From an uncultured archaeon (GTDB taxonomy: Archaea > Aenigmatarchaeota > Aenigmatarchaeia > GW2011-AR5), in NCBI GenBank assembly GCA_964373695.1, contig CAYJVT010000001.1:22328-86327 (forward strand): a stretch of 64,000 bases of DNA, read 5' to 3'. The notes under the pieces are model-generated. The model made no database searches, was not told where the DNA came from, and worked only from the letters and a program-made list of their open reading frames with translations. Positions 22,341 through 41,028 of the stretch are shown piece after piece; position 1 is the first letter of the stretch, and every line of letters starts with the position of its first letter. Made by a program: the position numbers and the translations under genes.

Positions 22341-23804
22341 ATGTCGGAAATTCTTCTCATCCAGCCAAATATAGGCATACACGATTTCCTAGCCACCAGA
22401 TTCCCCGACCCTCTGCTCGCAATAGCCTCGGTGCCGCATATGAGGGGTTACAAGGTCAAGATACTTGACCAGAGGATAGAAAAAAACTTCAAGCATCTTC
22501 TGGAGCAGGAAATCGGAAAAAAGCCGCTGTGCATCGCCCTGCCTGTTATGACTGGCGGCCAGATACTCCGCGCCCTTGAGATATCGAAATTCATCAGAAG
22601 CATCGACAAAGACATAAAAATAGTCTGGGGCGGGCCGCATCCGACATTATTCCCTGTCCAGGTCTTGGAAAATGAAAATGTGGACATAATCGTGTCGGGC
22701 GAGGGCGAAATAACGTTTTTCGAGCTTGTCGAGGCTCTTTCAAAAGGCGCTCCTCTTTCAGGCATAAAAGGGATATCGTATAAGGAGGACAGCAGCATAA
22801 AAACGAATCCGGAAAGGGAGCTTATCAAAAATCTTGATGAGCTGCCGCCTATTCCATACGACCTGATAGACGCAAGCAAATATAATCCGACATACATATC
22901 AGGAAGGAAAGCCTTCACGCTCCTGACATCGAGGGGATGTCCATATCGATGCACGTTCTGCTTCGCTACTGCATACTACAACTTCACATGGCGCGGCTAT
23001 TCCGTGGACAGGACGATGGAAATGATACATGAAGCTGTCAACAAATTCGGCGCGCAGACAATACTGTTCCAGGAAGACAACTTCGCGACCAGCATACCGA
23101 GATGCAACGAGATATTTGACAGGATTATAGCGGACGGCCTCGACATTACGTTCAGCCTGGTGGGTATACGCGCCACCGATGTCGCAAGGATGGACCTGGA
23201 CAAGATGTACAAGGCCGGGTGCAGGAACTGCGACATGGGCGTCGAATCAGGGGACCCTGAAGTGATGAAAACCATGATAAAGGCCCTGACGCCGGAACTC
23301 GTCCTGGACGTGAACAGGAAGATAAGGGATTACGGCATAAAGGTGAAATATTCCTTCATAGCCGGCCTCCCGATGGAGAAGGACCCGAAGATATCGATAA
23401 ACTTCGCATTCAAGCTCATAAAGGAGAACAAGAACGCGTATACGCCGTTCTTCCCCTACACGCCTTTTCCGGGCACTGAAATGTACCATGCCGCGATAGA
23501 AAAAGGCTTTGTGCCGCCAACAACGCTCGAAGGCTGGGGCAATTTTGACCTGGAGCACTGGAGGGACCACTATCCCAGCTGGTACACAGAAGAGGAGAAG
23601 CGATGGATAGAGGGCATAGAAAGGATGTCGGTCCTAGGGAACCGCAACTCGAAATACAAGATATCAAACAAGACTTTCAGGTTTTTCTTCGACCTGTACC
23701 ACCCGATTGCCAAGTTCAGGTTCATGAGGAACTACTACGGGATGCCGCTTGACATAAAGATGCAGAACAAGGTCATGAATATGGTAGTCAAGACGCTTGA
23801 TTAA
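22341..23804 (+). CDS. B12-binding domain radical SAM enzyme (class B rSAM, probable C-methyltransferase or related)
   Basis: 487 aa with an N-terminal cobalamin-binding Rossmann domain and a radical SAM motif SRGCPYRCTFC (CxxxCxxC), then ...GVESGDPEV.... Confidence 0.85.
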   Translation: MSEILLIQPNIGIHDFLATRFPDPLLAIASVPHMRGYKVKILDQRIEKNFKHLLEQEIGKKPLCIALPVMTGGQILRALEISKFIRSIDKDIKIVWGGPHPTLFPVQVLENENVDIIVSGEGEITFFELVEALSKGAPLSGIKGISYKEDSSIKTNPERELIKNLDELPPIPYDLIDASKYNPTYISGRKAFTLLTSRGCPYRCTFCFATAYYNFTWRGYSVDRTMEMIHEAVNKFGAQTILFQEDNFATSIPRCNEIFDRIIADGLDITFSLVGIRATDVARMDLDKMYKAGCRNCDMGVESGDPEVMKTMIKALTPELVLDVNRKIRDYGIKVKYSFIAGLPMEKDPKISINFAFKLIKENKNAYTPFFPYTPFPGTEMYHAAIEKGFVPPTTLEGWGNFDLEHWRDHYPSWYTEEEKRWIEGIERMSVLGNRNSKYKISNKTFRFFFDLYHPIAKFRFMRNYYGMPLDIKMQNKVMNMVVKTLD

Positions 23805-25636
23805 TCAATAACAACGAGCTGCTCGTTCACGGATTTTTTTGTCTCTTCAAGATTCGGATAAAGGCTGAACGCCTCGAACTTGTCTCTCCAGTATTCCGAC
23901 TCGCTTAGATATTTCTCTACAAGCCGTATTCTTTCAGCCGCCCCGCCGACGTTGCCGGAATTAAACTCGCATGCGGCAAGCGTCATGTTTGCAAGCGCGT
24001 GGCCTGAAGTGACCACATCGCATATGTATCTCATCTGCCTGACGATCTTAGACAGCCTATCACGATCTTTTATGTTCATGACCCTCTCGTAATTTATTTT
24101 ATAATTCATGTAGAACCATATATCCATCAGCTGCTCCGAAGTCGGCTCCGCATCCAGGTTGCCGCTTTCGAATGGGTTGGCGAATTTTTTCACTTCCTTT
24201 TTGTGCTCGACGGTGTTCTGCTTCCCGTGGGGGCCTATCATGAACCGCGTTTCATTCGTCTGGAGCTTGTCCTCTATCAGGCCCTCTTTCACCATCGCCT
24301 TGTATATCGGGGTAGAGGGCAGAGGCTGCAGTATGTTCAGTGCATACCAGTCCAAGTCCAGCTCAAGTGCAAGGTTCATGGTATCGAGCATCATTCTCAG
24401 CGTTTCATGGGGAAAGCCCAGCATGAGGAAGCCGCGGGAGAATATCTTGGGATATTTCCTTAGAAGGGCCGCCGCATTCCTGAAATTGTCCACTGTCCCG
24501 GGCTTTTTTATGTCCAGAAGTATTTTCGGGTTTCCGGATTCGATGCCGAAGAAAAGCCCTATGCATCCCGATTCGGCCGTAGCCTCTATTATAGCAGGCT
24601 TGCACGCAGCAGCTATGACGCCGTTGGAGGCGTCCCATGTTATGCCGAGGTTGCGCCTTTTTATCTCCTGGAAAAGCTCTATTGTCCTCTTCTCGTTGAA
24701 GAAAAGGTCGTCGTCAAGCCACATTATATGCTTCACGCCGTATTTCCTGGCAAGGAGTTCTATCTCGTCCGCAACGCTTTCAATGCTTCTCTGCCTGACA
24801 CCCATGCCATTGAAGCTGCGGACGCTGCAGAACGTGCACATCGCCCGGCATCCCTTGTTGGAAAGCACGGTCGCGACCCTGGTTCCTGGCTCAAGCAGCG
24901 CAGTGAAGGAGCCGATGGTGCCCACGGAAGAATAATTCGATATATCGACAAGATCGTACGCCGGTATCCTGTTCAAATCATCCGTCTCCGGTGCCTTCCT
25001 TTCCTCCAGCGAATAATATTTGCCGCCTGCAATCACTGACACCTGATAAATCTCATCCCCATGACCGTTCGCGGCCTCAAGAAGCTTCTGGAAAGCCACC
25101 TCGCTCTCGTAGGAGCATGCTATGAGCCTTTCGTAGTCTATTGAGCGCAGAACCCTTTCTGTGTCGTTAGACACGTGAACGCCTCCGACAATTATCGGCA
25201 GTTCCTTTCCGGCGACCTCGCTGCATACTCGCACAAAGCTGTCGTGCGTCATCGTGAACATGCATGTTATGCCGACCGCGTCAGGCCTGAATTCGTCAAT
25301 CTTTCTGGCCAGAAGGCCTTTCCATTCGGCATCGTAATCCATCTTGCCCCCTGATTCCACGGCCCTCTTTATCACATGATAATTTAGGTCGACAATCTCG
25401 GGCTCGTGGCCATTCTCTCGCAAAACGTCGGCGAGAAGCAGCGGGCCATAAGGCGGATATGTATAACACCTTTTCTGCAATGCGGCCTCAAAGTTGAATT
25501 CCTCTGATGCGATGTCCGGCGGGTTGACGAGAAGCACCTTCCTAGCTTTTTTTCCGCCGAATATCTCGCGTATTCTCGCCAATATTGCCGCCTTCGCCTC
25601 CTGTCCCGGCTCGTGCTCTTTCAGAAGCTGCTCCAT
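23801..25636 (-). CDS. B12-binding domain radical SAM enzyme
   Basis: 611 aa with ...LLVNPPD... B12-like N-domain, NKGCRAMCTFC (CxxxCxxC) and ...FGIESGNPKIL.... Its stop codon overlaps the convergent rSAM gene's stop within the palindrome GATTAATC. Confidence 0.85.
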   Translation of the reverse strand: MEQLLKEHEPGQEAKAAILARIREIFGGKKARKVLLVNPPDIASEEFNFEAALQKRCYTYPPYGPLLLADVLRENGHEPEIVDLNYHVIKRAVESGGKMDYDAEWKGLLARKIDEFRPDAVGITCMFTMTHDSFVRVCSEVAGKELPIIVGGVHVSNDTERVLRSIDYERLIACSYESEVAFQKLLEAANGHGDEIYQVSVIAGGKYYSLEERKAPETDDLNRIPAYDLVDISNYSSVGTIGSFTALLEPGTRVATVLSNKGCRAMCTFCSVRSFNGMGVRQRSIESVADEIELLARKYGVKHIMWLDDDLFFNEKRTIELFQEIKRRNLGITWDASNGVIAAACKPAIIEATAESGCIGLFFGIESGNPKILLDIKKPGTVDNFRNAAALLRKYPKIFSRGFLMLGFPHETLRMMLDTMNLALELDLDWYALNILQPLPSTPIYKAMVKEGLIEDKLQTNETRFMIGPHGKQNTVEHKKEVKKFANPFESGNLDAEPTSEQLMDIWFYMNYKINYERVMNIKDRDRLSKIVRQMRYICDVVTSGHALANMTLAACEFNSGNVGGAAERIRLVEKYLSESEYWRDKFEAFSLYPNLEETKKSVNEQLVVID

Positions 25637-27179: not shown

Positions 27180-27824
27180 ATGCCAGGTCTCATAATACAG
27201 CACCGCGTCAACAATATAGGCGCGCTCCGCAAGATACAACCAAAATACGGCGTGGAGATAGACATCCGTCACGACAACAGGACAGGCAGCCTGTATCTGA
27301 ACCATGACCCGGGAGAGGGCGACGACTTCTTTGAATATTTGGATGTTTTCGCGGAGCAGGGCAACCGCTTCGCTATATTCAACCCGAAAGAAATCGGCAT
27401 TGAGCAGCGAATAATAGAAGCTGCCAAGGAACGCGGCATTGAGGACTACTTCCTTCTCGACCTTGAATTCCCTTTCATATATCGTGCCGCTCAAGGCGGC
27501 GTGCCAAACATCGGCAAACGCATCGCCATCCGCTATTCAGAGGCCGAGCCTTTGGAGCAGGCAATGCTGCTCAAAGGCAGGTTTGACTGGGTATTCGTCG
27601 ACGTCAACACTCGCCTGCCGCTCGACAAAAAAATATGCAATATGCTTGATGAAGCAGGCTTCAGGACCTGCATCGTATGCCCGTCGCGCTGGAAGCGTCC
27701 TGATGACATACCAAAGTTCATAGAGCAGATGAAGAAAGAAGGCATAAAGATAGACGCTGTCATGACCAAGGACCCGTATGCAGAACAGTGGGAGAACAGC
27801 GGCGTTGTGAGGCCGTTCAAATGA
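27180..27824 (+). CDS. Glycerophosphodiester phosphodiesterase-like (GDPD/PI-PLC-X TIM barrel), short form
   Basis: MPGLIIQHRVNN...GVEIDIRHDNRTGSLYLNHD... follows the GDPD pattern HR...E-I-D-I...DG..V..HD. The C-terminus reads ...GIKIDAVMTKDP. Confidence 0.5.
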   Translation: MPGLIIQHRVNNIGALRKIQPKYGVEIDIRHDNRTGSLYLNHDPGEGDDFFEYLDVFAEQGNRFAIFNPKEIGIEQRIIEAAKERGIEDYFLLDLEFPFIYRAAQGGVPNIGKRIAIRYSEAEPLEQAMLLKGRFDWVFVDVNTRLPLDKKICNMLDEAGFRTCIVCPSRWKRPDDIPKFIEQMKKEGIKIDAVMTKDPYAEQWENSGVVRPFK

Positions 27825-28648
27825 CAAACCTCGTCCCGATGGCAGGGCTCGGGAAGCGCTTCTCTGACGAAGGCTACAGCTTGCCGAAGCCGCTGATACC
27901 AGTGTCAGGCAGGCCGATGATAGTGCAGGCAATAAGGAGCATGCCTTCTGACAAGGATTGGGTTTTCGTGTGCAGGAAGGAGCACATAGAAAAATATCAT
28001 GTTGACAAAATCCTCATGAAGGAAGCGCCTTCCTGTAAAATCATTGCCGTTGACAAAACGACAGAAGGACAGGCATCCACATGCCTCCTCGCAAAGGGCT
28101 TCATAGACATGGAAAAGCCGCTTTTCATAGGCGCGTGCGACAACGGCATGGTATTCGACAGGGAGAAATGGAAAAAGCTTACTTCTGACAAGAGTATAGA
28201 CGCAATAATTCTGACATTCACGAGGCAGCCCAACATGACAAGAAATCCCAAGGCGTGGGGCTGGGTTGTTAATGACAATGGCGTTGTGCGGGATATATCT
28301 GTAAAAGTGCCTGTGAGCGACGACCCTTTCAACGACCACGCCGTCGTGGGCTCGTTCTGGTTCCGCACCGGCCAGGTATTCGTTGACGCGGCGGAGCAGA
28401 TGATAGCCTCCAACAAGCGCACGAACAACGAGTTCTATGTCGATTCTGTGCCCATGGAAATCATCGCGAACGGCGGCAAGGTCATGATATTCGACCTGAA
28501 GCAGTACATAGGATGGGGAACCCCCATAGACCTCCGCGAGTACGAGCATTGGGAATCTGCCATATTGAAGGGCGCCTCAGAGCAAGACAGGAAATCCGAT
28601 TTTTACGGCTTCTGGAAGGATTATTTCACGAAAAACATGATAAGATGA
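27821..28648 (+). CDS. Sugar/polyol-phosphate nucleotidyltransferase, WGTP-motif family (paralog 1 of 4 domains)
   Basis: MTNLVPMAGLGKRFSDEGYSLPKPLIPVSGRPMI... with a C-terminal ...YIGWGTPIDLREYEHW. The ATGA overlap with the upstream gene supports the start at 27821. Confidence 0.75.
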   Translation: MTNLVPMAGLGKRFSDEGYSLPKPLIPVSGRPMIVQAIRSMPSDKDWVFVCRKEHIEKYHVDKILMKEAPSCKIIAVDKTTEGQASTCLLAKGFIDMEKPLFIGACDNGMVFDREKWKKLTSDKSIDAIILTFTRQPNMTRNPKAWGWVVNDNGVVRDISVKVPVSDDPFNDHAVVGSFWFRTGQVFVDAAEQMIASNKRTNNEFYVDSVPMEIIANGGKVMIFDLKQYIGWGTPIDLREYEHWESAILKGASEQDRKSDFYGFWKDYFTKNMIR

Positions 28649-28691: not shown

Positions 28692-31172
28692 ATGGGGCTC
28701 GTGGAAAGGCTTGAAGCGGGCGACAGGATAGGAAGCCAGTTTTCAAGGTTCGTCGTCATAGGCGGCATAAGCACGCTGATAAACTACGCCGTTTTCCTCG
28801 TCCTGTATGCCATGCTTTCCGTAAACTACCTTGTCGCGTCAGCCGCCGGCTACGTGGTCGGCGCCGTCTTTGGATATTACTTCAACGCCCGCCTGACCTT
28901 CAGGAGCAGGCCCGGCCTCAGCGTGATGCCCTATTTTGCCGTATACCTGTTCTCGCTGGTGGCGGGTCTTGGGGTGCTGAGGTTCTTCTCTGTGTCGGCC
29001 GGCATAGAGCCGCTGTTTTCAAACGTGATTTCAATAGCGTTCACGGCGGCGGCCAACTTCCTGGGGTGCAGGTATCTGGTTTTCGGCGGCCTGAAAATAC
29101 CTTCGGTATTCAAAAGTAAGGCATTCCTGTCTGTGCTTGCCTTAAAGATAATTTTCGCCTTTCTTTTAGCCTCGGACTTCATGACGCAGCTCTTCATACC
29201 GTTTGTGCAATATTTCGTCGGGAACCCGCTTTCAAATCCCTACCAGCATTTCATCGACATAGGCAACGTGAAGGCGTTCCCGTACCCCCCATTCATGCTC
29301 CTGGTAGTCTCCGTCCCGTACATGCTGTTTGGCGTCTTCAGCGGGCCGTTTTTTGAGCTTTTCGCGATGCGTATACCGCTTCTGGCGGCCGACATAGCGA
29401 TATTCTACGTTCTGTACAGGATTCTGGACGGGAAGAAGGTGATGCTCCTCTACTGGGCGTCCCCTGTGGTGTTCTACATAACGTATATCCACGGCCAGCT
29501 CGACATAATACCCGTGGCGCTCCTGTTCCTGTCAGCCTATTTCCTCAAAGGCCGTCAGTACGTGAAATCCGCGGCCCTCCTGGGCGCCGGCATCGCGGCG
29601 AAGTCGTTTGTCTTCGTGGCGCTTCCTCTTTACCTCGCTTACCTGATAAAGAAAAAAATCCGCTGGATAGGGACGGCTGCATTTTTCGCCATTTCCCTGG
29701 GGATGTATGCCGCCTTCCTCGTGCCCTTTGTCTTCAGCGAAGGCTTCGTCCGCATGGTATTCGGCGCCGAGGAGCAGTTCAGGCTGTTCAATCTTTCGGT
29801 GGATTTAACCCTTGGCCTGGTCTATTACATAGTTCCTGCAGCCTATGCATACATACTTTTCAAGGCATTCTCCTTCAAGAGGATGACGAGTGACATGCTG
29901 TTCGTCCTTCTGGGCATGACCCTTACATTTCTTGTCACGTTCATACATCCTGAGCGCGGCTGGTATATGTGGGCTATCCCGTTCGTAATCTATTTTCTGG
30001 TGAAGGAGAGGATAAGCGTATGGATTTACTCGGCTTTCAATGCCGCGTACCTCCTTTACTTCCTTTTCGTTCCGGACTCGGACGTGTTCCGCGTATTCCA
30101 GGTGGTGTGGCCATCTATATCATCACTGATGACGCCGTACTACATGCTGGTTTCCGCAGGAATCCCATCGGACATACTGGTCAACGTCCTGTTCACCGCC
30201 ATGACGTCGGCGCTGCTTTACCTTACGTACATAATCTACAGGAGGGGCGTCAGAAGCGGTCTGCTGTTCCAGGAGAAGAACGGAATACCGATAATAGGGA
30301 TAGGAGGCGACTCAGGCTCCGGCAAGACCACCCTTGCGAAGACTCTTTCGGAACTGTTTGGCAGGGAGCGCGTGACGACTGTATACGGGGATGACATACA
30401 CAGATGGGAGAGAAAAGACAGTAACTGGGAAAAGTATACGCATCTCAACCCTGCCGGAAACAGAATTTACCTGAATTACAGGCAGATAAGGAAGCTGAAG
30501 GGCGGCGCCACGATAAGCAGGCCGCATTACGACCACGGCACCGGGAAATTCACTTCCCCGTCCAGTATAAAGCCGAGAGACATAATAATCTCCGAAGGCC
30601 TCCATACGTTTTTCATCAGCGAATCCAATAGCATCTACGAAATAAAGGCTTTCCTTGACCCCGATCCATCATTAAGAGTTCTGTGGAAGCTCAGGCGTGA
30701 TATGAAGCTCAGGGGATACTCAAAGAAGGAGGTAATGAAGAAACTTGGGCAAAGAAGGCGCGACTCAGACAGGTTCATCGCGCCGCAGAAGATGTATGCC
30801 GACATGGTGATTTCTTACATGCCTGAAGGGAAGGTGAGCTTTTCCGACATTGAAAATGACGTTCCTGTAAGGCTGCAGATCGACGTGAAGAACGACATAC
30901 CGCTCGAAGGTTTTCTGGAGGCTGCGTCCGGAATAAAATCTCTCGGCATAGAGATGGAATACCATGACCACAGATTCCAGCGCATGGTGTTCAGGGGCGG
31001 CGCTTCGGTGGAAGATATTGGAAATCTGCTGAACTCCCTTGACATAGATTACGAAACGTACGAAATAGACAGGAACGGAATCAGGGGCGGGTTCGACGGC
31101 ATTTTACAGGTTATTTTCCTTTATTGCCTCAACGAAAGGCTCAAGGTGCTGGGTGGTGGCGGCGATGAATGA
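28692..31172 (+). CDS. Three-domain fusion: GtrA-like module + GT-C-like polytopic membrane domain + phosphoribulokinase/uridine-kinase-family P-loop kinase
   Basis: aa 1-125 FSRFVVIGGISTLINYAVFLVLY...FLGCRYLVFG (GtrA); aa ~130-520 carry >10 hydrophobic helices; aa ~525-826 carry GIPIIGIGGDSGSGKTTLAKTL (Walker A) and ISEGLHTFF...FLDPDPSLRVLWKLRRDMKLRGYSKKEVMKKLGQRRRDSDRFIAPQKMYADMVI (PRK signature region). Confidence 0.8.
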   Translation: MGLVERLEAGDRIGSQFSRFVVIGGISTLINYAVFLVLYAMLSVNYLVASAAGYVVGAVFGYYFNARLTFRSRPGLSVMPYFAVYLFSLVAGLGVLRFFSVSAGIEPLFSNVISIAFTAAANFLGCRYLVFGGLKIPSVFKSKAFLSVLALKIIFAFLLASDFMTQLFIPFVQYFVGNPLSNPYQHFIDIGNVKAFPYPPFMLLVVSVPYMLFGVFSGPFFELFAMRIPLLAADIAIFYVLYRILDGKKVMLLYWASPVVFYITYIHGQLDIIPVALLFLSAYFLKGRQYVKSAALLGAGIAAKSFVFVALPLYLAYLIKKKIRWIGTAAFFAISLGMYAAFLVPFVFSEGFVRMVFGAEEQFRLFNLSVDLTLGLVYYIVPAAYAYILFKAFSFKRMTSDMLFVLLGMTLTFLVTFIHPERGWYMWAIPFVIYFLVKERISVWIYSAFNAAYLLYFLFVPDSDVFRVFQVVWPSISSLMTPYYMLVSAGIPSDILVNVLFTAMTSALLYLTYIIYRRGVRSGLLFQEKNGIPIIGIGGDSGSGKTTLAKTLSELFGRERVTTVYGDDIHRWERKDSNWEKYTHLNPAGNRIYLNYRQIRKLKGGATISRPHYDHGTGKFTSPSSIKPRDIIISEGLHTFFISESNSIYEIKAFLDPDPSLRVLWKLRRDMKLRGYSKKEVMKKLGQRRRDSDRFIAPQKMYADMVISYMPEGKVSFSDIENDVPVRLQIDVKNDIPLEGFLEAASGIKSLGIEMEYHDHRFQRMVFRGGASVEDIGNLLNSLDIDYETYEIDRNGIRGGFDGILQVIFLYCLNERLKVLGGGGDE

Positions 31173-32097
31173 ACTTGAATGGCTCGTAAAGACCTCAGGG
31201 AATATCGGAAGCGACCCAAGGCTTGTCCAGGGCACCGGGGGCAACCTGTCAGTGAAGCTCGGCGGAAAGATGATGATAAAATCCTCCGGGGTCAGAATGG
31301 ATGCTGTCAGTAACGGCAGCGGATGGAGCGTCGTCGACCACGGGAAGATAGCCGGCATATATTCAAGAAGATTAACAGAGGAAGACGCCGGGAGGGTTTT
31401 GGAAGAAGCCATTATCGAAGGCTCAAAGCCCTCGATAGAGACGGGGTTTCACTCGTTTCTTGAAAAATACGTCATTCACGTCCACCCTGTCCATCTTAAT
31501 GTCATTCTGTGCTGTGAAAAAAGCGCTGAAATTATGTCCGAAATTTTCTCGCCGGACGAATTCACCTGGGTTCCTTATACCAAGGTAGGCCACAGACTGG
31601 CAGCAGAGATAAAAGACCGCGGCCATGACAGAGGGATTATATTCCTGGAAAATCACGGTGTGATAATATCATCAGACAGCCCCAAGGACTGCACAGAAAT
31701 TCTTTCGTCTGTCGAGGAGCGTGTAAGAAAATACCTAGAGTCAAAAATCCGGCCGTTCGAGCCGTTTTCATATACGATACCAAGGGAAGCGGAAGGCTGC
31801 TATGTCAGCACTTCCGAAGCGGTTCTGCGCGGCAGGTCGGGAATTTTCTCCGGCTTTCTTTTCCCTGACGCCGTCGTCTTCTCCTTGCCGGAAAAGATAA
31901 AAGCTGACGCCAAGGGCGTAACGTATTTAATGGATTATGCGAATGCTGTAAACGTTGATGGCGTGCTGGCGGCTCATGCATACATAAAGGAAAATGCCGC
32001 AAAGCTCGGCATGCTGAAATACCTCACGGAAATGGAAATCAGCGACATAATAGGCATGGAATCTGAAAAATACAGGAGAAAGATGGTTGGATTATGA
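31165..32097 (+). CDS. Class II aldolase/adducin-family protein (FucA/AraD/MtnB-like aldolase, epimerase or dehydratase)
   Basis: ...GNIGSDPRLVQGTGGNLSVKLGG... matches the class II aldolase N-terminal motif, with metal-ligand His residues (HSFLEKYVIHVHPVH). ATG at 31165 overlaps the upstream stop (ATGA). Confidence 0.7.
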   Translation: MNELEWLVKTSGNIGSDPRLVQGTGGNLSVKLGGKMMIKSSGVRMDAVSNGSGWSVVDHGKIAGIYSRRLTEEDAGRVLEEAIIEGSKPSIETGFHSFLEKYVIHVHPVHLNVILCCEKSAEIMSEIFSPDEFTWVPYTKVGHRLAAEIKDRGHDRGIIFLENHGVIISSDSPKDCTEILSSVEERVRKYLESKIRPFEPFSYTIPREAEGCYVSTSEAVLRGRSGIFSGFLFPDAVVFSLPEKIKADAKGVTYLMDYANAVNVDGVLAAHAYIKENAAKLGMLKYLTEMEISDIIGMESEKYRRKMVGL

Positions 32098-32963
32098 AAG
32101 TGATAATACCGGCGGCCGGGATTGGCCAGAGATTTCTGGATGCCGGATATAAAAAACCGAAGCCGCTGATACTCGCCGACGGCATCCCGTTTGCCAGGCA
32201 TGTGGCAAATATGTTTTCCCCTAGCGATGAGTTTGTTTTCGTGTGCAATGAAGAGCACCTGAAAACGACGGAGATGCGCAGCGTCGTCGAAAGCGTCGGC
32301 CGCATAGTTTCCATAAAGCCCCACTCCCTCGGCCCTGTGCACAGCGTTCTTGCCGCCTCTGACCTCATAGAGGAAGATGAGCCTGTGATGGTCTGCTACT
32401 GCGATTTCTACGAATGGTGGGATTATCAGCATTTCAAAGATACAGTGAAAGAAAGCGGATGCGACGCGGCCGTCACCGCGTACACCGGATTCCACCCCCA
32501 CCTTCTGGGCACCGGCCTATACGCCTCGATGAAAGTGGAAAACGGCTGGATGCTGGAATGCAGGGAGAAGCACAGCTTTACGGAGGACAAGATGGACAGC
32601 TTCCACCAGACTGGAAAGTTTTACTTCTCCACCGGAAGCATTTTGAAAAGGTTCTTCAGTGATATAAAGGAAAGGAACCTCGTAGTGAACGGTGAATTCT
32701 ACATCAGCGTCGTGACGCAGGCGATGGTGGAGGCGGGCCTGAAGGTGATGGTATATCCGGTGGAGCATTTCCTCCAGTGGGGCACGCCGCAGGAGCTGGA
32801 GGAATACACGCAGTGGTCAGGGTACTTCTCGGGCAAGAACGGGTTGCCGGAGGCTTTCGACGAAAGGAGCTTAGGATACTGGGAATCGTTCTTCAGGAAA
32901 TGCCCGTGGCATCCGTACGGAAAAGGTGGGGCTCATGATAAAGGGGATTATGCTAGACCTTGA
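32094..32963 (+). CDS. Sugar/polyol-phosphate nucleotidyltransferase, WGTP-motif family (paralog 2)
   Basis: MKVIIPAAGIGQRFLDAGYKKPKPLILADGIPF... with a C-terminal ...FLQWGTPQELEEYTQW. ATGA overlap with the aldolase gene. Confidence 0.75.
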   Translation: MKVIIPAAGIGQRFLDAGYKKPKPLILADGIPFARHVANMFSPSDEFVFVCNEEHLKTTEMRSVVESVGRIVSIKPHSLGPVHSVLAASDLIEEDEPVMVCYCDFYEWWDYQHFKDTVKESGCDAAVTAYTGFHPHLLGTGLYASMKVENGWMLECREKHSFTEDKMDSFHQTGKFYFSTGSILKRFFSDIKERNLVVNGEFYISVVTQAMVEAGLKVMVYPVEHFLQWGTPQELEEYTQWSGYFSGKNGLPEAFDERSLGYWESFFRKCPWHPYGKGGAHDKGDYARP

Positions 32964-33594
32964 CAACACCCTCTATGACTATGAAACCTGCAATGAATAC
33001 GCAAAATACGAGCTTTTCCGCAAAATCGAGGGCGATATGGGCGTTGCCGGCGCCGAAAAGGCGTTCGACGAAGCAAGAAAATCCGTGAAGAAGTCTCTTG
33101 AGAAGACGGCGGCCGGCCATTCGCGCCTTCTTTACATAGGGAAGGCGCTAGAGGCCCTTGGCATAAGCGCACTCCATTCGGTGCGCTATCATGATTTTTT
33201 CTGGGAAAAATATTTCGAGAAAATGGAGCTTTTCGAGAGCGTCGCGGATTTTCTCGAGCATGCAAAAAATTCCGGGATGAAAATCTGCATAGTCACGGAC
33301 CTCACCGCCGAAATCCAGATGAAGAAAATAATCCACCTCGGGATAGAAGGCTATGTAGATTTTATCGTGTCGTCTGAGGAGGTGGGTGAAGATAAGCCGT
33401 CATCGAAGGTGTTCTGCATGGCCCTAGAGAAGATGGGTATGAAAAAGGAGGATGTTGTTATGGTGGGGGACGACGAGGAAAAGGACATAAAAGGCGCGGA
33501 AAATGCAGGCATCCGTGCGGTGAAGGCGGACCCTTCCATCTTTGCATCCGGGAGGCTCGTGGAAATCCTGCAGGCGGCGGATAGGTTTAAGTAA
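32935..33594 (+). CDS. HAD-superfamily hydrolase (subfamily IA-like phosphatase)
   Basis: MIKGIMLDLDNTLYDYE... (motif I DxDxT), ...CIVTD... (motif II), ...KP... and ...VVMVGDDEEKDIKGAENAG... (motifs III/IV). Confidence 0.8.
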   Translation: MIKGIMLDLDNTLYDYETCNEYAKYELFRKIEGDMGVAGAEKAFDEARKSVKKSLEKTAAGHSRLLYIGKALEALGISALHSVRYHDFFWEKYFEKMELFESVADFLEHAKNSGMKICIVTDLTAEIQMKKIIHLGIEGYVDFIVSSEEVGEDKPSSKVFCMALEKMGMKKEDVVMVGDDEEKDIKGAENAGIRAVKADPSIFASGRLVEILQAADRFK

Positions 33595-33616: not shown

Positions 33617-34246
33617 ATGATACTGCTCCCGAAGCTCAGGCTCGGCGTAACCGCATTTTCGGGCCCAGAATCCGTGGAAGCGATAAGTAAAATGGGGGTC
33701 AGGCATGTGAACATCCCTTCATCTCTCCTGAATGCTGACAACGCCGGTGCCTACATGGAGAACGCCAAAAAATTCAATATCACAATCGAGGCCGTGTGCA
33801 CCGGCGGCTCGGATAATTTCGCGGAGCTGGCGGCAGCCGTGGGAGCGAAGGCACTGTGCATAGCCTTGGATGACATAAGCCTTATCGGAGCCGTTTCGGA
33901 CAGCGCCAAGAGCACAGGACTTAATTATCTGATATGGGAACCTGCAGGCATCGGTATGGAAGACTGTAAAAGGACTCTGACAGACATCAGCAAGACGTCT
34001 GCCATTCCTGTGAAGCTCGCACTCTCTCTCGAGTCGGATAACATCTACGAGATGTCGAGAATTATAGGAAAGGACGCCATGATAATCATAAGGAGGAAGG
34101 AAGACATTGCAATACTCGGGAAGGTTATCGACAGCCTGAGAACGGGTGGCTCTAGGGAAAACATGATAATGCTGGATATGCCTTCGGCAGCCATTGACAG
34201 CCTCGAGACCTCGGTGGACTACTGTAGGAGTTTCGTCAGAGAGTGA
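33617..34246 (+). CDS. Hypothetical protein, possibly TIM-barrel-like
   Basis: ~210 aa from MILLPKLRLGVTAFSG.... No confident family. Its position in the operon supports a real gene. Confidence 0.35.
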   Translation: MILLPKLRLGVTAFSGPESVEAISKMGVRHVNIPSSLLNADNAGAYMENAKKFNITIEAVCTGGSDNFAELAAAVGAKALCIALDDISLIGAVSDSAKSTGLNYLIWEPAGIGMEDCKRTLTDISKTSAIPVKLALSLESDNIYEMSRIIGKDAMIIIRRKEDIAILGKVIDSLRTGGSRENMIMLDMPSAAIDSLETSVDYCRSFVRE

Positions 34247-34251
34247 AATTA

Positions 34252-35151
34252 ATGACAAAAATCAAATTCGGCACTGACCTTGACTTTGCGGTTAACAGGT
34301 ATCCGGAGCCTGAGGAATGGGCACGCGTCCTGTCGGAAGAGCTTGGCGTCAGGCATGCCCAGTTCCGCTCCGACCTCATCCAGCCGCATTTTTCCGATGA
34401 AATAATAAATGAGCAGGCTGAAAGGGTAAGAGCCGCATGCAAGGAATACGGAATCAGGCTGGAGCATGCGTTCACCAGCCAGAGATGGGCCTACTGCGGC
34501 CATCCTGACGCAAAAATAAGGGAATACTGGCACTGGTGGCTGAAGCGCTATTCTGATATTGCTGCAAAAGTCGGTGCGCGGAGCGCAGGAAGCCGCCTCG
34601 GCATATACAGCATGAAAGACCTTTCAACAAGGAAGGAGTTCATTCTAAAGGAGATAATGAGTTTCTGGAAGAAATGGGCATCTTATTCGAAGAAGGCCGG
34701 CCTTGACTGCCTGACATTCGAGCATCTCTCAATCCCGAGGGAGCTTGCCGACACGATAGAAGGCGCAAGACAGGTGCTTGACATGGCAAAGGGCTCCGAA
34801 ATTCCAATCCTGTTGTGCCTTGACACCGACCAAGGAAATGTGATGTCCGGAAACCCGAAGGATGGCGACCCGTACGAATGGCTCAGGGAATTCGGCAAAG
34901 ACGCGCCTATCCTGCACCTCAAACAGAGAATAAGAGGCAACGCCTCGTCTGGCAAGCCGTTCACGCCCGAAAACAACAAGGAAGGAATGATAATACCGGA
35001 GAAAGTCGTGGAAGCACTTGAAGAAAGCGGAGCGAAGGAAGTCAACCTTTACCTTGAGCCTTCATTCCGCGAACGCCTGCCGCAGGACAACAACGTAATC
35101 AGTGACCTCAGGCAGTCGGTCAACTTCTGGAAGCCTTACGCCGACGAATAG
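34252..35151 (+). CDS. Xylose-isomerase-like TIM-barrel protein (sugar-phosphate isomerase/epimerase family)
   Basis: 300 aa. MTKIKFGTDLDFAV... and the spacing of conserved E/H/D residues (...TFEHLS..., ...LCLDTDQGN..., ...LHLKQ...) are typical of the AP-endonuclease-2/xylose-isomerase-like fold. Confidence 0.6.
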   Translation: MTKIKFGTDLDFAVNRYPEPEEWARVLSEELGVRHAQFRSDLIQPHFSDEIINEQAERVRAACKEYGIRLEHAFTSQRWAYCGHPDAKIREYWHWWLKRYSDIAAKVGARSAGSRLGIYSMKDLSTRKEFILKEIMSFWKKWASYSKKAGLDCLTFEHLSIPRELADTIEGARQVLDMAKGSEIPILLCLDTDQGNVMSGNPKDGDPYEWLREFGKDAPILHLKQRIRGNASSGKPFTPENNKEGMIIPEKVVEALEESGAKEVNLYLEPSFRERLPQDNNVISDLRQSVNFWKPYADE

Positions 35152-35179: not shown

Positions 35180-35752
35180 TCACTCCAGATTCGCGTGGTA
35201 TTTCCACAGCTCTTCGCCGGGAATGCTTTTCCTGCCTTGTATCATCAAAGATACTATGTCCCCGAATACGTGGAGTGACTGGTCAAAGAGCGTGCTCATG
35301 GGCTGTATAGACTTCACGCCTTCCTGCATATTGGTCTTCGTCGGGCATTTCAGGTGGACGCACATGTCTGCAAGAGATTTTATTGTGGATTGCTCCGAAG
35401 ATGTAATGAGAGCCAGCTTGGCGTTGTGCTTCTTCGCTATCTGCGATATTGTGACAGGAACCTTGCTCTCGCCTGAGCCGCTGGCGACTATGAGGAGATC
35501 GCGCGGCGTTATGGCCTTTTCTGCGACGGAGCCGACGACGTGGCAGTCTATGCCCAAATGGCTTAAGCGCTTTGCCATGCACTGCAAGGAAAGGAATACG
35601 CGGCCGACTGCTATGAAGAATACTTTCTCGGCTCTCAGTATTTCTTCCACTAGCGCATCCACTTCGTTTGTATCGACCATTTTCGTTACGCTGTATATCT
35701 CGTCCAGGACAGACACTGTGAACTTGCTGTATTCGTGCTCCATAAACATCAC
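35180..35752 (-). CDS. SIS-domain sugar isomerase, 6-phospho-3-hexuloisomerase (PHI)-like
   Basis: 190 aa with ...KVFFIAVGRVFLSLQCMAKRLSHLG... and ...LLIVASGSGES..., an SIS pattern with PHI-like length. Confidence 0.65.
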   Translation of the reverse strand: MMFMEHEYSKFTVSVLDEIYSVTKMVDTNEVDALVEEILRAEKVFFIAVGRVFLSLQCMAKRLSHLGIDCHVVGSVAEKAITPRDLLIVASGSGESKVPVTISQIAKKHNAKLALITSSEQSTIKSLADMCVHLKCPTKTNMQEGVKSIQPMSTLFDQSLHVFGDIVSLMIQGRKSIPGEELWKYHANLE

Positions 35753-36789
35753 GGTTCCACGACGACCTTCAGGCCGTCACGGTTTTTTACTGTTTCAAAC
35801 GCCTTTAAAATATCGTCAAGTGGGAATTTGTGAGTTATGATATTTTTCGTCTTTATGTCTCCGTTTGCAAGCAGCTCCAGGGCCTTCCTGTGGTGATCTT
35901 TTGTGGAGGAAAATGAGCCGCCGACGGCGAACTGCCTGTAATGCATGTAGTTGTTCTGGAATGTCACGGTGTCGTCGGTGCCTTTCGGCACGCCGCCAAA
36001 AAGGTTCACGAAACCGCCCTTTGCCACAGCCTGGATGCAGGCGCGATGCGCATTTATGTCACTGCACGCCGAAACAACGATATCATATCCCCTTCCGCCT
36101 GTCAGCTCTATGGACTCCTCAAGGAAGTCGTTGTTCTCCGAATGGATATAATGGTCGGCGCCTGTAGGCCTTGACATCTCAAGCCTTTTCTCATTCCTGT
36201 CAACAAGAACAGCCATCGAGGCGCCCATTATCTGTGCCGTATTTATCATGAGATTTCCTATCGGCCCAGCCCCTATCACGAGCACACTTTTCCCTTCTTT
36301 CATGCCGGCGAATTCCAGCCCGTTGTATACGCATGCGAGCGGCTCTGCAAAGGACGCCTCGACAAAGTCGAGGTTCTTCGGCATGAAATTAATCGGCCCG
36401 CGTTCCGCCGCTTCCTTCGGCAAAAGCAGATATTCAGCGAAGCCTCCCGGGACGGTCGAGCCTATGGAGATAACATTCTGGCAAAGCATGTCCAGGCCCC
36501 TCCGGCATTCCTCACAGTTTCTGCATGATATCTCATTACCCATGGCAAGCCTGTCTCCAATGCTGAAATTCTCCACGCCTTTTCCAATTTCAGTAACAGT
36601 GCCGGCGATTTCGTGCCCCATTACAAAGGGGAATTTCTTTATCCTGTCGCCGTACTCGTAGAACCTGAGGTCTGAGCCGCAGACGCCGCATGCGCCAACC
36701 TTAAGGAGTATCTCACCTTCTTTCGGGACAGGCGTTTCGACATCCCCGACCCTCATATTTTTGGGGCTTTCAAGAAGGGCGGCTTTCAT
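35749..36789 (-). CDS. Zinc-dependent alcohol/polyol(-phosphate) dehydrogenase (MDR family)
   Basis: 346 aa with ...GACGVCGSDL...GHEIAG... (catalytic Zn), CRNCEECRRG (structural Zn) and GAGPIGN (Rossmann). Confidence 0.85.
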   Translation of the reverse strand: MKAALLESPKNMRVGDVETPVPKEGEILLKVGACGVCGSDLRFYEYGDRIKKFPFVMGHEIAGTVTEIGKGVENFSIGDRLAMGNEISCRNCEECRRGLDMLCQNVISIGSTVPGGFAEYLLLPKEAAERGPINFMPKNLDFVEASFAEPLACVYNGLEFAGMKEGKSVLVIGAGPIGNLMINTAQIMGASMAVLVDRNEKRLEMSRPTGADHYIHSENNDFLEESIELTGGRGYDIVVSACSDINAHRACIQAVAKGGFVNLFGGVPKGTDDTVTFQNNYMHYRQFAVGGSFSSTKDHHRKALELLANGDIKTKNIITHKFPLDDILKAFETVKNRDGLKVVVEP

Positions 36790-36910: not shown

Positions 36911-38518
36911 ATGAAGGTTATCATACCGATGGCCGGGAATAACGAGGACTTCCGCCGGGAAGGGATGGATGAAGTAAAGCACATGATGAATATAGACGGC
37001 AAGAGCATGATAGAGCACGTATGCGGCATGTTCCCCCAGAACAGCAGCTTCATATTTCTCTGCAGGAAGGCGCATCTGGATAATTCAGGCCTTATGGAAC
37101 ATCTCCAGAAAATAGTCAAGAATTCCACGATAATAGTAGTTGAAAACGACACGAGAGGGCCGGTGGAAACTGTGTTGCTCGCTGACGGGGCTGTGAGAGA
37201 TGATGAGGAAGTAATAATAGCCCATTCCGACGCCATATCGGACTGGGATTTCAGCGTGTTCCTGAAGAAAATAAAGGACAGAAAAGCCGATGGCGCCCTT
37301 TCAACGTTCATAGGCTTTCATCCGACACACCTCAACGGGGTGCGTTATGCCTCCATATCAACAGACGACAACGACTATGTAGTCAGTATAAAGGAAAAGG
37401 AGCTCATAACAAAGGGCTACATTGAAAACTACACTTCCGCCGGTGTGTATTATTTTTCAAGGTGGGATGTGTTCAAGAAATACGCTGAAAGGATGATAGA
37501 AAACGTCGAACACGAGATGTTTTACATAAGCCTGGTATACAACGAGATGTTGAAAGACGGCCTGAAGGTCGTGCCTTTCGAGGCTGAGGGCCTAATTTAC
37601 TGGGGTGAACCGCAGAATCTGAAGGAGTATGTGTTCTGGTCGGAATATTTTGCGTCCCTGACCAAGCAGGGCAAGGAAAGGGGAATGTACGATATGGTAA
37701 ATCTCATACCTTCCGCAGGCCGCGGAAAGAGATTTGCAGACGCTGGGTACAAGATTCCCAAGCCGTTCATAGATGTTCTTGGCGAGCATATGATAGTGAA
37801 ATGTGCAAAATCGCTTCCAAAAACGGCCAGATACGTCTTCGTCTGCCTAAGGCAGCATGTAGAAAATTTCGGGCTCGACGAAATTCTGAAAAAAAACTTC
37901 CCGGAATGCGATATTGTCATAGTAAATGACTATACAGACGGCATGGCACGCTCGTGTCTCATGGCCAAGCATCTTCTGGACAAGGACAAGCCTGTTTTCG
38001 TCTCGTCATGCGACTACAGCTTCGTCTACAACGACGAAAATCTCAGGAGGCTGATTGAGGACGAGGACCCTGATGCAGTAGTGTGGACATTCAGGGGGTA
38101 TCCGGATGCCAGAATAGCACCAATGGCATACGCCTACATGGTAGTGGAGAACGGCCGTGTCAAAAGAATCTCGGAAAAGGTTCCGATAAGCGACGAGCCG
38201 CACAAGGATCCAATAGTGCAGGGCATTTTCTACTTCAAGACAGCCAAGCTTCTGATAGATTGCATAAACGAGATGATAGAAAAAAACATAACCGTCAACG
38301 GCGAGTTCTACGTCGGAACCGCCATAAACCATCTCATAGAGAAGGGTATGAAAGTCATGCCATTTGAGCTGGATAAATACATATGCTGGGGAACGCCGCA
38401 CGACCTGCTTGTGTTCCAGTTCTGGGAAAACTACTTCATAAATAATCCGAATCACCCATATAAAAGGATTGTACCTAAATCGGAATTAAGCCAACTGAAA
38501 TTGGCTAAGATGTGGTAA
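36911..38518 (+). CDS. Internally duplicated (tandem) WGTP-family nucleotidyltransferase; N-terminal copy has a degenerate G-loop, C-terminal copy canonical
   Basis: Domain 1: MKVIIPMAGNNEDFRREGMDEVKHMMNIDGKSMI...LIYWGEPQNLKEYVFW. Domain 2: LIPSAGRGKRFADAGYKIPKPFIDVLGEHMI...YICWGTPHDLLVFQFW. Confidence 0.75.
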   Translation: MKVIIPMAGNNEDFRREGMDEVKHMMNIDGKSMIEHVCGMFPQNSSFIFLCRKAHLDNSGLMEHLQKIVKNSTIIVVENDTRGPVETVLLADGAVRDDEEVIIAHSDAISDWDFSVFLKKIKDRKADGALSTFIGFHPTHLNGVRYASISTDDNDYVVSIKEKELITKGYIENYTSAGVYYFSRWDVFKKYAERMIENVEHEMFYISLVYNEMLKDGLKVVPFEAEGLIYWGEPQNLKEYVFWSEYFASLTKQGKERGMYDMVNLIPSAGRGKRFADAGYKIPKPFIDVLGEHMIVKCAKSLPKTARYVFVCLRQHVENFGLDEILKKNFPECDIVIVNDYTDGMARSCLMAKHLLDKDKPVFVSSCDYSFVYNDENLRRLIEDEDPDAVVWTFRGYPDARIAPMAYAYMVVENGRVKRISEKVPISDEPHKDPIVQGIFYFKTAKLLIDCINEMIEKNITVNGEFYVGTAINHLIEKGMKVMPFELDKYICWGTPHDLLVFQFWENYFINNPNHPYKRIVPKSELSQLKLAKMW

Positions 38519-38520
38519 AA

Positions 38521-40317: not shown

Positions 40318-41028
40318 ATGTCCAGACCAGAGCTTTCCGTGGTTGTCCCGTTTTACAACGAGCAGGACAACGCAAAAACAGTTCTATCCGGCCTCGGCAA
40401 CGCCCTGGATGATATAAATTACGAAATCATAGCCGTCAACAACGGCTCTACAGACAATACGGCGTCCGTGCTCCGTGAGGTGAAAAACAGCAGAATAATA
40501 ATCGTGACAGTGGAAAAAAACATCGGATTCGGCTACGGCATCAGAAAGGGCCTGGAATCGGCGAAAGGCAAATATCTCGGCTACATGTGGGGGGACAACC
40601 AGATTTCCGCCGGCGTCGTCGCGGAGATTTACAGGAAGCTCGCCAAAGAGGGGCTGGATTTGTGCAAGATAAGGCGCGCCGCAAGGGATTACGGATTTTT
40701 CAGGAAGCTTGAATCCGCCGCATACAACAGGATATTTCTGGCGCTGTTTTTTGGGAAGATAAGCAACGACATAAACGGAAGCCCCAAGATAATGAAGAGG
40801 GCGCTTTACGAAAGGCTGGGCCTGGAGTCAAACGACTGGTTCATCGACACGGAACTCATGGTGAAAGTGAAGGTCCTGGGCGGCAGGGTTGGCGAAGTGA
40901 AGGCTGCCTACAACAAGAGAAGCAAGGGAAAGTCCAAAGTAAAGTTCTACGTCATGATGGAATTCCTCTCAAATATCCTCAGATTCAGGTTCAGCGGGCT
41001 CAAGAAATTTAAAGACTCCGTAGACTAG
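40318..41028 (+). CDS. GT2 glycosyltransferase, paralog of 39594..40286
   Basis: MSRPELSVVVPFYNEQDN...VNNGSTDNT...WGDNQ. Confidence 0.75.
   Translation: MSRPELSVVVPFYNEQDNAKTVLSGLGNALDDINYEIIAVNNGSTDNTASVLREVKNSRIIIVTVEKNIGFGYGIRKGLESAKGKYLGYMWGDNQISAGVVAEIYRKLAKEGLDLCKIRRAARDYGFFRKLESAAYNRIFLALFFGKISNDINGSPKIMKRALYERLGLESNDWFIDTELMVKVKVLGGRVGEVKAAYNKRSKGKSKVKFYVMMEFLSNILRFRFSGLKKFKDSVD

Follow-up and report, generated by a model that had tools for sequence, protein, structure and literature searches.

A GtrA-GT87-kinase fusion protein proposed as the membrane core of a widespread Gtr/Arn-like surface-glycosylation module

Fusion gene and domain structure

The window analyzed here is the whole 64,000-nucleotide stretch of DNA from an uncultured archaeon, and the gene under study occupies 28692..31172 on its forward (+) strand. 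The region reads through as a single open reading frame (ORF) of 826 aa with no interruption and encodes a GtrA module, a GT87 (GT-C) membrane domain, and a phosphoribulokinase (PRK)-type kinase. Logan contigs from two independent studies each covered the entire ORF and contained no variant letters, indels, or joints; the read-level check of one uninterrupted ORF that had been suggested in the first-pass annotation was thus passed. An assembly chimera was ruled out by these joint-free, indel-free contigs together with the recurrence of the architecture in many genomes. An AlphaFold2 (AF2) model of the fusion, which was built from an input alignment of 18 sequences, was confident, with a pLDDT of 87 and a pTM of 0.80; all three parts can be seen in it, namely GtrA with its four helices, a membrane domain of many helices, and the P-loop kinase in full. 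The three-domain anatomy read earlier from the letters (GtrA, GT87/GT-C, and a complete PRK-family kinase) was borne out by Pfam, AF2, and Foldseek.

The GtrA/DPMS transmembrane module is located at 28746..29084 (+), which corresponds to aa 19-131. It was identified using Pfam (GtrA_DPMS_TM, E 1.7e-18) and the AF2 model, where its four helices span aa 16-41, 46-69, 79-102, and 107-130, in agreement with the GtrA-family four-TM module first described for this position. GtrA subunits of known systems aid the transfer of lipid-linked sugars across the membrane.

The adjoining membrane domain (29085..30266, +; aa ~132-525) was assigned to the GT87 (MptA/B-like) GT-C glycosyltransferases using Pfam and Foldseek. 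The Pfam GT87 (formerly DUF2029) core at 29277-29819 (+; aa 196-376) scored 25.9 bits, which is a marginal pass of the 25-bit gathering cut-off; homologs scored more clearly above this cut-off and carry PF26314 MptA_B_family. When the domain was modeled alone, the pLDDT was 91, and a Foldseek search with this model returned ArnT as the top match, along with ALG6, GPI mannosyltransferase I (PIG-M), PimE, AftA, and EmbB. On the predicted structure, the domain is a GT-C fold like that of polyprenyl-phosphate-sugar-dependent transferases. The earlier description of a GT-C-like or DUF2029-like region therefore stands, marginally by the Pfam GT87 score and by fold in Foldseek. Invariant residues of the domain are D234, H267, Q269, D271, and W424/Y425/W427; of these, D234 and D271 are candidates for the acidic catalytic residue that GT-C enzymes carry on an extracytoplasmic loop.

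The PRK-type P-loop kinase domain (30267..31172, +; aa 526-826) was identified using Pfam, NCBIfam, PDB alignment, and Foldseek. Pfam PRK (PF00485) matched aa 534-715 with an E of 2.2e-38 and 132.5 bits against a cut-off of 22. The top NCBIfam model was PRK07429 'phosphoribulokinase' with 205 bits, compared to 88 bits for the uridine kinase model, so that the PRK profile search proposed for aa 525-826 gave a match well above uridine kinase. These scores lie below the curated PRK cut-offs: PRK07429 requires 236 bits, and PRK15453 gave only 47 bits. In Foldseek comparisons, ~310 residues of the kinase were aligned with PRKs at target-normalized TM-scores of 0.78-0.81, as opposed to only ~190 residues with uridine kinases, which indicates a complete PRK-type fold rather than a uridine-kinase-sized domain.

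The Walker A segment (about 30297-30326) is GIGGDSGSGKTT, with invariant G536/G539/D540/S541/G544/K545, and agrees with the P-loop pattern applied for PF00485, GxxGxSGxGK[ST]. Further invariant residues, judged like these over 18 diverse family members, are D567/H570, R610/Y613/H615, K666/R669/D670/R674, and R688/D691/Q699/D704. Among them, D567, H570, R669, D670, and R674 are presumably the PRK substrate and catalytic positions (the Asp and His of DDxH and the RDxxxRG(H/Y)S segment). The domain aligned residue for residue with PRKs of the PDB, including EGLH, WK(I/L)xRDM, RG(H/Y)S, and 'IxPQ...AD.VI', and the PRK signature motifs quoted in the first-pass annotation were recovered in this alignment. 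With no variation among the 18 members at Walker A or at the PRK-type positions for catalysis and substrate binding, the domain is predicted to be an active enzyme rather than a pseudokinase.

In the kinase tree, the fusion clade was split from the canonical archaeal PRKs (Methanomicrobiales, RuBisCO-associated) with a support of 100/100. Phylogenetically, the kinase is a lineage of its own outside the canonical PRKs, and the comparison that had been drawn with RuBisCO-linked archaeal PRKs was corrected on the basis of this tree. The accompanying statement that no RuBisCO is present was accurate for the window and incorrect for the genome, which encodes a form III RuBisCO on contig C8, away from the window, with T. 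kodakarensis 1geh as its closest match. The genome also encodes a protein resembling AMP phosphorylase and a member of the IF-2B family.

Gene cassette around the fusion

The fusion is placed among sugar-phosphate enzymes, as was noted from the sequence earlier, with an aldolase, a HAD protein, and nucleotidyltransferases adjoining it on the same strand. Upstream are a conserved protein of 214 aa, U214 (27180..27824, +), and a sugar-1-phosphate nucleotidyltransferase of RmlA/GlmU-like type (27788..28648, +; Pfam NTP_transferase; NCBIfam rmlA_long/Arch_glmU). U214 had no family in Pfam or NCBIfam, and Atlas gave hypothetical clusters only. Downstream, a class II (FucA/AraD-type) zinc aldolase/epimerase gene (31153..32097, +; Pfam Aldolase_II 2.6e-17) overlaps the stop of the fusion ORF; its product has HxH and NHG zinc motifs and failed the NCBIfam ribulose-1-phosphate (Ru1P) aldolase model, with 22 bits against a cut-off of 300. 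This gene is followed by a MobA-like sugar nucleotidyltransferase (32094..32963, +; Pfam NTP_transf_3 2.1e-12) and a HAD-IA phosphatase (32926..33594, +). The best NCBIfam model for the phosphatase was the haloarchaeal RuBP 5-phosphatase, which it failed with 182 bits against a cut-off of 330, so its fit to the kinase chemistry is tentative. A GT2 that is a candidate polyprenyl-phosphate-sugar synthase (40318..41028, +; NCBIfam best PRK10714, ArnC-like) is located farther downstream.

Co-occurrence was counted over 84 fusion loci. A nucleotidyltransferase was found in 80/84, the class II aldolase in 70/84, U214 in 67/84, a GT2 of this kind in 59/84, and the HAD phosphatase in 56/84, and matching gene order recurs in independent archaeal and bacterial contexts. 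GtrA was fused in 27/84 loci, separate in 5/84, and absent within 6 kb in the remaining 52/84, which suggests that another flipping agent may serve in many lineages. One lineage has the nucleotidyltransferase joined to the HAD in a single protein, and this points to a linear route with a phosphatase step followed by activation. Standalone kinases of the same clade were also found: P0050 is flanked by a HAD, a class II aldolase, a nucleotidyltransferase, and a standalone GtrA, and P0047 adjoins a class II aldolase. Kinase and cassette therefore travel together, fused or unfused. The Zn-ADH and NTase-IspD (TarIJ-like) genes of the window were ruled out as conserved module members; the ADHs matched 0-1/84 loci.

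Distribution of the fusion

The GT87+kinase architecture was found at about 196 GTDB species loci in DPANN archaea, CPR bacteria, Bacteroidota, and Proteobacteria. The best GTDB match to the fusion was from an Aenigmatarchaeota MAG (92%), and a protein from an Aenigmarchaeota MAG is a member of the fusion's exact-sequence cluster. An origin of the DNA in DPANN (Aenigmarchaeota) is therefore most likely, and one in Thermoplasmata was rejected. Database labels are domain-based only, e.g. 'uridine kinase/putative flippase GtrA' and 'glycosyltransferase 87 family protein'. Literature searches on the fusion or the module found no paper. The claim that no such fusion has been described is thus upheld as to the literature and mistaken as to rarity, and a unique fusion was ruled out by the ~196 species loci and the existing database names. 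Since fusion and cassette are widespread yet functionally unstudied, they probably mark an unstudied surface-decoration pathway.

Proposed function and alternatives

On balance, we slightly favor a reading in which a widespread Gtr/Arn-like surface-glycosylation module has the fusion as its membrane core, with the kinase supplying sugar-donor synthesis. The neighboring enzymes would produce a nucleotide-activated sugar, which the GT2 would move onto a polyprenyl-phosphate carrier. Where present, the GtrA module would flip the lipid-linked sugar to the outer face, and the GT87 (GT-C) domain would take the sugar off its lipid and attach it to an extracytoplasmic acceptor (a surface glycan or glycoprotein). 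The kinase domain would act as a sugar-phosphate kinase that feeds the pathway from the cytoplasmic side; it is expected to face the cytoplasm because ATP is located there, and this placement was also based on rough positive-inside counting. By analogy with phosphoribulokinase, it most likely acts on a ketose phosphate, probably a pentulose-5-phosphate, and phosphorylates the hydroxyl at C1. Kinase, HAD, and FucA-like aldolase together may convert a sugar phosphate of central metabolism into a sugar-1-phosphate that is the substrate of the nucleotidyltransferase, and the kinase-transferase fusion probably tethers precursor synthesis to its point of use. The analysis directly shows the domains and folds, the invariant active site, the conserved neighborhood, and the separate kinase lineage; flux direction, substrate identity, and acceptor are inferred. 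Against this glycosylation reading, a chemical route from ketose C1 phosphorylation to an anomeric sugar-1-phosphate is hard to see, and the class II aldolase could cleave the kinase product instead. The lack of GtrA within 6 kb in 52/84 loci and the HAD score below its model's cut-off likewise count against it.

A more specific version was entertained tentatively. Here the protein would be a single-polypeptide 'make-flip-transfer' machine serving a new pentulose-derived nucleotide-sugar route that spread horizontally in DPANN, CPR, and Bacteroidota. The PRK-family kinase would have been recruited from pentose-phosphate metabolism and would act together with the HAD phosphatase and the class II aldolase, and an unusual donor sugar, once placed on a polyprenyl carrier, would end on surface glycans or S-layer glycoproteins.

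Cleavage by the aldolase is part of a rather unlikely alternative, a non-carboxylating pentose shunt, in which a true phosphoribulokinase would convert Ru5P to RuBP, followed by Ru1P and then DHAP and glycolaldehyde; the link to the glycosylation genes (by adjacency or fusion) would then be regulatory and not through a common substrate. The HAD and FucA-like families match the haloarchaeal RuBP phosphatase and Ru1P aldolase (PMC9700705), the top NCBIfam model of the HAD is the haloarchaeal RuBP 5-phosphatase, and PRKs are the nearest relatives of the kinase by NCBIfam, PDB alignment, and Foldseek. However, the aldolase scored 22 bits where the Ru1P aldolase cut-off is 300 bits, the cassette also conserves a nucleotidyltransferase and a GT2, with the HAD-nucleotidyltransferase fusion in one lineage, and a catabolic kinase joined to a membrane GT-C enzyme is difficult to account for. 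The presence of form III RuBisCO, the AMP phosphorylase-like protein, and the IF-2B-family protein in the genome would suit a Calvin-type PRK that feeds RuBP to that RuBisCO. This was considered highly improbable, given that the kinase clade stands apart from canonical archaeal PRKs and is fused to a glycosyltransferase, and that the cassette, compared by gene neighborhoods alone, is also conserved in Bacteroidota and Proteobacteria.

The first-pass annotation had proposed Ru5P, a pentitol, or a lipid-linked sugar as possible kinase substrates, feeding a glycan phospho-decoration. In the lipid-linked version of this scheme the kinase would phosphorylate a lipid-linked sugar at the cytoplasmic face before flipping, and the GT87 domain would transfer the phosphosugar. 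The fusion of the kinase to membrane transfer machinery and the HAD phosphatase of the module, which could trim such phosphates, are compatible with it, but the nucleotidyltransferase and aldolase of the cassette are left unexplained, and the ligands of PRK/UK-family kinases are small sugar phosphates rather than lipid conjugates. We regard it as improbable; the conserved context points to the making of a sugar donor for a Gtr-like system instead. A structural or regulatory role for an inactive pseudokinase is scarcely credible, since 18 diverse members all retain the lysine of Walker A and the PRK-type residues for catalysis and substrate binding.

If the preferred glycosylation reading is true, the module represents a new and widespread cell-surface glycosylation pathway in which a PRK-family enzyme was recruited for sugar-donor making. 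The cassette runs through DPANN and CPR symbionts, whose surface glycans probably mediate host attachment. Some of the 'PRK homologs' from which a partial Calvin cycle has been read in CPR/DPANN genomes may be glycan-module kinases, and carbon-fixation inferences from gene presence therefore need to be re-checked against the fusion clade.

Comparison with known systems

The kinase has the signature segments of PRKs (Methanospirillum hungatei 5b3f; cyanobacteria-specific 9qkp/9qko/9qkn) and shares their P-loop fold over the whole length of ~310 residues. Unlike them, it is joined to GtrA and GT87, belongs to its own clade, and is accompanied by a glycosylation cassette instead of RuBisCO.

The haloarchaeal non-carboxylating pentose-bisphosphate pathway uses a RuBP phosphatase of the HAD family and a FucA-like Ru1P aldolase (PMC9700705). 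The cassette likewise combines a HAD phosphatase with a class II aldolase of FucA-like type, which fits ketose-1,5-bisphosphate/ketose-1-phosphate chemistry. In contrast to the haloarchaeal route, where R15P isomerase is used, a RuBP-type substrate would here come from the PRK-family kinase; moreover, the genes lie in a glycosylation cassette, and the HAD and aldolase models match below their curated cut-offs.

ADP/GDP-heptose biosynthesis employs GmhA, the HldE/HddA kinase, the GmhB HAD phosphatase, and the HldE/HddC nucleotidyltransferase. Its logic of a C1 kinase, a HAD that removes the distal phosphate, and a nucleotidyltransferase that activates the sugar resembles that proposed here, and a kinase, a HAD phosphatase, and a nucleotidyltransferase occur together in one cassette according to the 84-locus co-occurrence. 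The kinase, however, belongs to the PRK family instead of the ribokinase or GHMP families, the HAD is of type IA and not of the GmhB-type IIIA, and a class II aldolase-family enzyme stands where the SIS isomerase would be.

The membrane domain is similar to the mycobacterial polyprenyl-phosphomannose-dependent mannosyltransferases MptA and MptB in its GT87 family and GT-C fold, but those enzymes are standalone, whereas GT87 is fused here to a kinase and, in some cases, GtrA. In Arn modification of lipid A with L-Ara4N, the ArnC GT2, the ArnE/F flippase, and the ArnT GT-C enzyme act together. The present system likewise combines an ArnC-like GT2 with a GT-C transferase (in Foldseek, ArnT ranked first for the GT87 domain); it differs in having GtrA as the putative flippase instead of ArnE/F, and in a sugar that would be made via kinase, HAD, and aldolase instead of ArnA/ArnB.

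Gtr serotype conversion depends on a GtrA flippase, the GtrB GT2 Und-P-Glc synthase, and a GT-C glucosyltransferase. All three component types (GtrA, an ArnC-like GT2, and a GT-C transferase) are co-encoded in the window, and the same division of labor, read here from the genes alone, would apply, with the GT2 loading the polyprenyl-phosphate sugar, GtrA flipping it, and the GT-C enzyme transferring it. Unlike the Gtr systems, which are known from enteric prophages, the fusion module is found in DPANN, CPR, and Bacteroidota, its transferase is GT87, it has a sugar-phosphate kinase, a HAD, a class II aldolase, and a nucleotidyltransferase of its own, and it unites kinase, GtrA, and glycosyltransferase in one polypeptide.

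Integrity and domain structure of the fusion

The ORF at 28692-31172 (+) encodes an 826-aa protein without interruption. Pfam assigned residues 19-131 to GtrA_DPMS_TM (E 1.7e-18) and residues 534-715 to PRK (E 2.2e-38), and the middle segment, searched alone, matched GT87 (the former DUF2029) at residues 196-376 with 25.9 bits against a gathering cut-off of 25 bits. GT87 was above threshold in full-length homologs, some of which also matched PF26314 (‘MptA_B_family’). In each of two independent studies, the full ORF was covered in one piece by Logan contigs, and none of these showed a difference, an indel or a joint. A near-identical 827-aa protein from a MAG (MBI2172886.1, ‘GtrA family protein [Candidatus Aenigmarchaeota archaeon]’) was found in the exact-sequence cluster, and the genome carrying the window is accordingly most likely that of a DPANN archaeon. 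Both the single ORF and the three-domain anatomy described in the first-pass annotation were confirmed by these searches; the fusion is correct and is not an artefact.

An AlphaFold2 model of the fusion, built from an 18-sequence alignment, was confident (pLDDT 87, pTM 0.80) and comprised four GtrA helices (residues 16-41, 46-69, 79-102, and 107-130), a helical membrane domain extending up to residue ~530, and an entire P-loop kinase. Modelled alone (pLDDT 91, pTM 0.91), the membrane domain matched the GT-C glycosyltransferases ArnT (E 1.5e-4), ALG3, ALG6, PimE, AftA, EmbB, and Pmt in Foldseek, as well as Candida GPI mannosyltransferase I (TMq 0.61, TMt 0.60), in agreement with its earlier description as GT-C-like. 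Invariance was scored across 18 diverse homologs, and in the GT87 domain D234, H267, Q269, and D271 were invariant, as was a WY.W motif of aromatic residues. A rough positive-inside count placed the GtrA N-terminus inside and, with an even count of GT87 helices preceding it, the kinase in the cytoplasm; we infer that the kinase must face the cytoplasm because it needs ATP.

Kinase domain

The best NCBIfam model for the kinase was PRK07429 ‘phosphoribulokinase’ (205 bits, below the cut-off of 236), ahead of the uridine kinase model (88 bits). Its best PDB alignments were with PRKs (new cyanobacteria-specific, Synechococcus, plant, and Methanospirillum), and the EGLH...LD...WK(I/L)xRDM...RG(H/Y)S...IxPQ...AD.VI segments quoted previously were present. 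Approximately 310 residues aligned with PRKs in Foldseek (TMt 0.78-0.81), whereas alignment with uridine-cytidine kinases was limited to approximately 190, so the full PRK-type fold, including its C-terminal part, is present. Residues invariant in the 18 homologs were, in Walker A, G536, G539, D540, S541, G544, and K545; in the DDxH segment, D567/H570; in the RDxxxRG(Y)S segment, K666/R669/D670/R674; and also R610/Y613/H615, R688, D691, Q699, and D704. The kinase is therefore predicted to be active.

The nearest solved structures are the recently released ‘cyanobacteria-specific PRKs’ (PDB 9qkn/9qko/9qkp), in one of which a chain is labelled ‘Uridine kinase’. The function of PRKs of this ‘putative bacterial type’ may be ambiguous, and the same may hold for the CPR ‘PRK’ claims of MBE 2019 (PMC6389311).

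Distribution and conserved cassette

Full-length GtrA-GT87-PRK and GT87-PRK proteins, annotated with domain names only, were retrieved by homolog search, and a GTDB-wide scan yielded 196 fusion loci. These were found in DPANN archaea (Aenigmatarchaeota, Micrarchaeia, Woesearchaeota), CPR bacteria (Saccharibacteria, Peribacteria, Kazan, Kaiserbacteria, Paceibacterota, Gracilibacteria, Kerfeldbacteria), Bacteroidota (Chitinophaga; Flavobacteriaceae including Eudoraea adriatica DSM 19308 and Zeaxanthinibacter enoshimensis DSM 18435), Alpha- and Gammaproteobacteria, Melainabacteria, Omnitrophota, Bdellovibrionales, and a spirochete endosymbiont. The architecture is widespread across databases rather than unique, although a literature search found no published description of the fusion, in line with the first-pass annotation, or of the module.

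The neighbours of the fusion were searched against 84 fetched fusion loci (±6 kb). A sugar-1-P nucleotidyltransferase was present in 80, and 70 encoded a zinc aldolase of class II (FucA/AraD-type); the window aldolase lies directly downstream, overlaps the fusion stop, and carries the HxH...NHG zinc motifs. The 214-aa protein at 27180-27824 (+), which belongs to no known family, occurred in 67 loci and is probably a cassette enzyme. A GT2 (59/84; ArnC-like in the window at 40318, i.e. of the polyprenyl-P-sugar synthase type) and a HAD-IA phosphatase (56/84) were also recurrent. GtrA was fused in 27 loci, a separate gene in 5, and not found within ±6 kb in 52. Gene order was similar in archaeal and bacterial loci, and one lineage encodes nucleotidyltransferase and HAD as a single protein.

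A kinase-domain tree placed fused and standalone module kinases in one clade, apart from the canonical archaeal PRKs of Methanomicrobiales (100/100). The standalone kinases share the cassette as well: one (P0050) is flanked by a HAD, a class II aldolase, a nucleotidyltransferase, a standalone GtrA, and a protein of 385 aa, and another (P0047) adjoins a class II aldolase. Standalone kinases were nested among fused ones; fusion and fission therefore occurred more than once.

Some other sugar genes of the window lie outside the conserved cassette. The sugar-1-P nucleotidyltransferase at 36911-38518 (+) is bifunctional, with an IspD-like domain, and its gene shares 7 bp with that of a polyol-phosphate dehydrogenase of the Zn-dependent type, 38512-39555 (+), whose best NCBIfam model was galactitol-1-P 5-dehydrogenase, below cut-off; a second Zn-ADH lies at 35749-36789 (-). 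These genes resemble TarIJ/Bcs1 CDP-polyol (CDP-ribitol-like) synthesis and were ruled out as cassette members, being present in 0-1 of the 84 loci. Within the plus-strand run of sugar genes, 34243-35151 (+) encodes a TIM-barrel sugar isomerase/epimerase (AP_endonuc_2) resembling xylose isomerase, which was absent from the 84 loci. A second GT-C enzyme, the Dol-P-Man:protein mannosyltransferase-like PMT_2 at 41957-43429 (-), could possibly serve S-layer glycoprotein glycosylation. Beside the glycan cluster are two B12-binding radical SAM enzymes of the cobalamin-dependent methylase type, 22341-23804 (+) and 23801-25636 (-), with near-identical homologs (94 and 89% identity) only in one Aenigmatarchaeota locus (L009).

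Proposed function

The cassette and fusion are best read as a Gtr-like module for surface glycosylation that has recruited a sugar-phosphate kinase of the PRK family. A nucleotide sugar would be produced by a dedicated route, put onto polyprenyl phosphate by the GT2, flipped by GtrA, and transferred outside the cytoplasm by the GT-C enzyme, here GT87; the fusion would link flipping and transfer to the kinase. Given the inferred cytoplasmic placement of the kinase, its substrate is most plausibly a soluble cytoplasmic precursor rather than the GT87 product. The pentitol or lipid-linked sugar proposed in the first-pass annotation is less likely.

A Calvin-type kinase feeding RuBisCO was also considered. 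The window itself contains no RuBisCO, as originally noted, but its genome (1.02 Mb, 91% complete) encodes a form III large subunit of 458 aa on contig C8 (6276-7205; locus L002, 1081-2457), closest to T. kodakarensis 1geh. Together with adjacent IF-2B-family and Glycos_transf_3 (AMP phosphorylase-like) genes on contig C2, it suggests an AMP/pentose-bisphosphate pathway, which is typical of DPANN archaea. The fusion is the sole PRK-family gene of this genome. A Calvin-type role is disfavoured because the kinase belongs to a separate clade and sits in a glycosylation context.

In the PRK reaction, a ketose phosphate is phosphorylated at its C1 hydroxyl, and ketose-1-phosphates are substrates of FucA-like aldolases; since, in addition, the closest curated NCBIfam model of the cassette HAD was RuBP 5-phosphatase (below cut-off), the kinase, HAD, and aldolase probably handle pentulose phosphates. 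This flux could, as a rival possibility, end in catabolic cleavage to DHAP and glycolaldehyde, for which the HAD and aldolase parallel a characterised RuBP 5-phosphatase and FucA-like Ru1P aldolase (PMC9700705).

In the main reading, the flux would instead end in a nucleotide sugar. On this reading, the kinase, HAD, and nucleotidyltransferase are comparable to heptose biosynthesis, and the cassette as a whole shares the logic of Gtr and Arn systems, in which a nucleotide sugar is made, lipid-loaded, flipped, and transferred. In the heptose case the order matches, a kinase being followed by a HAD and then by a nucleotidyltransferase.
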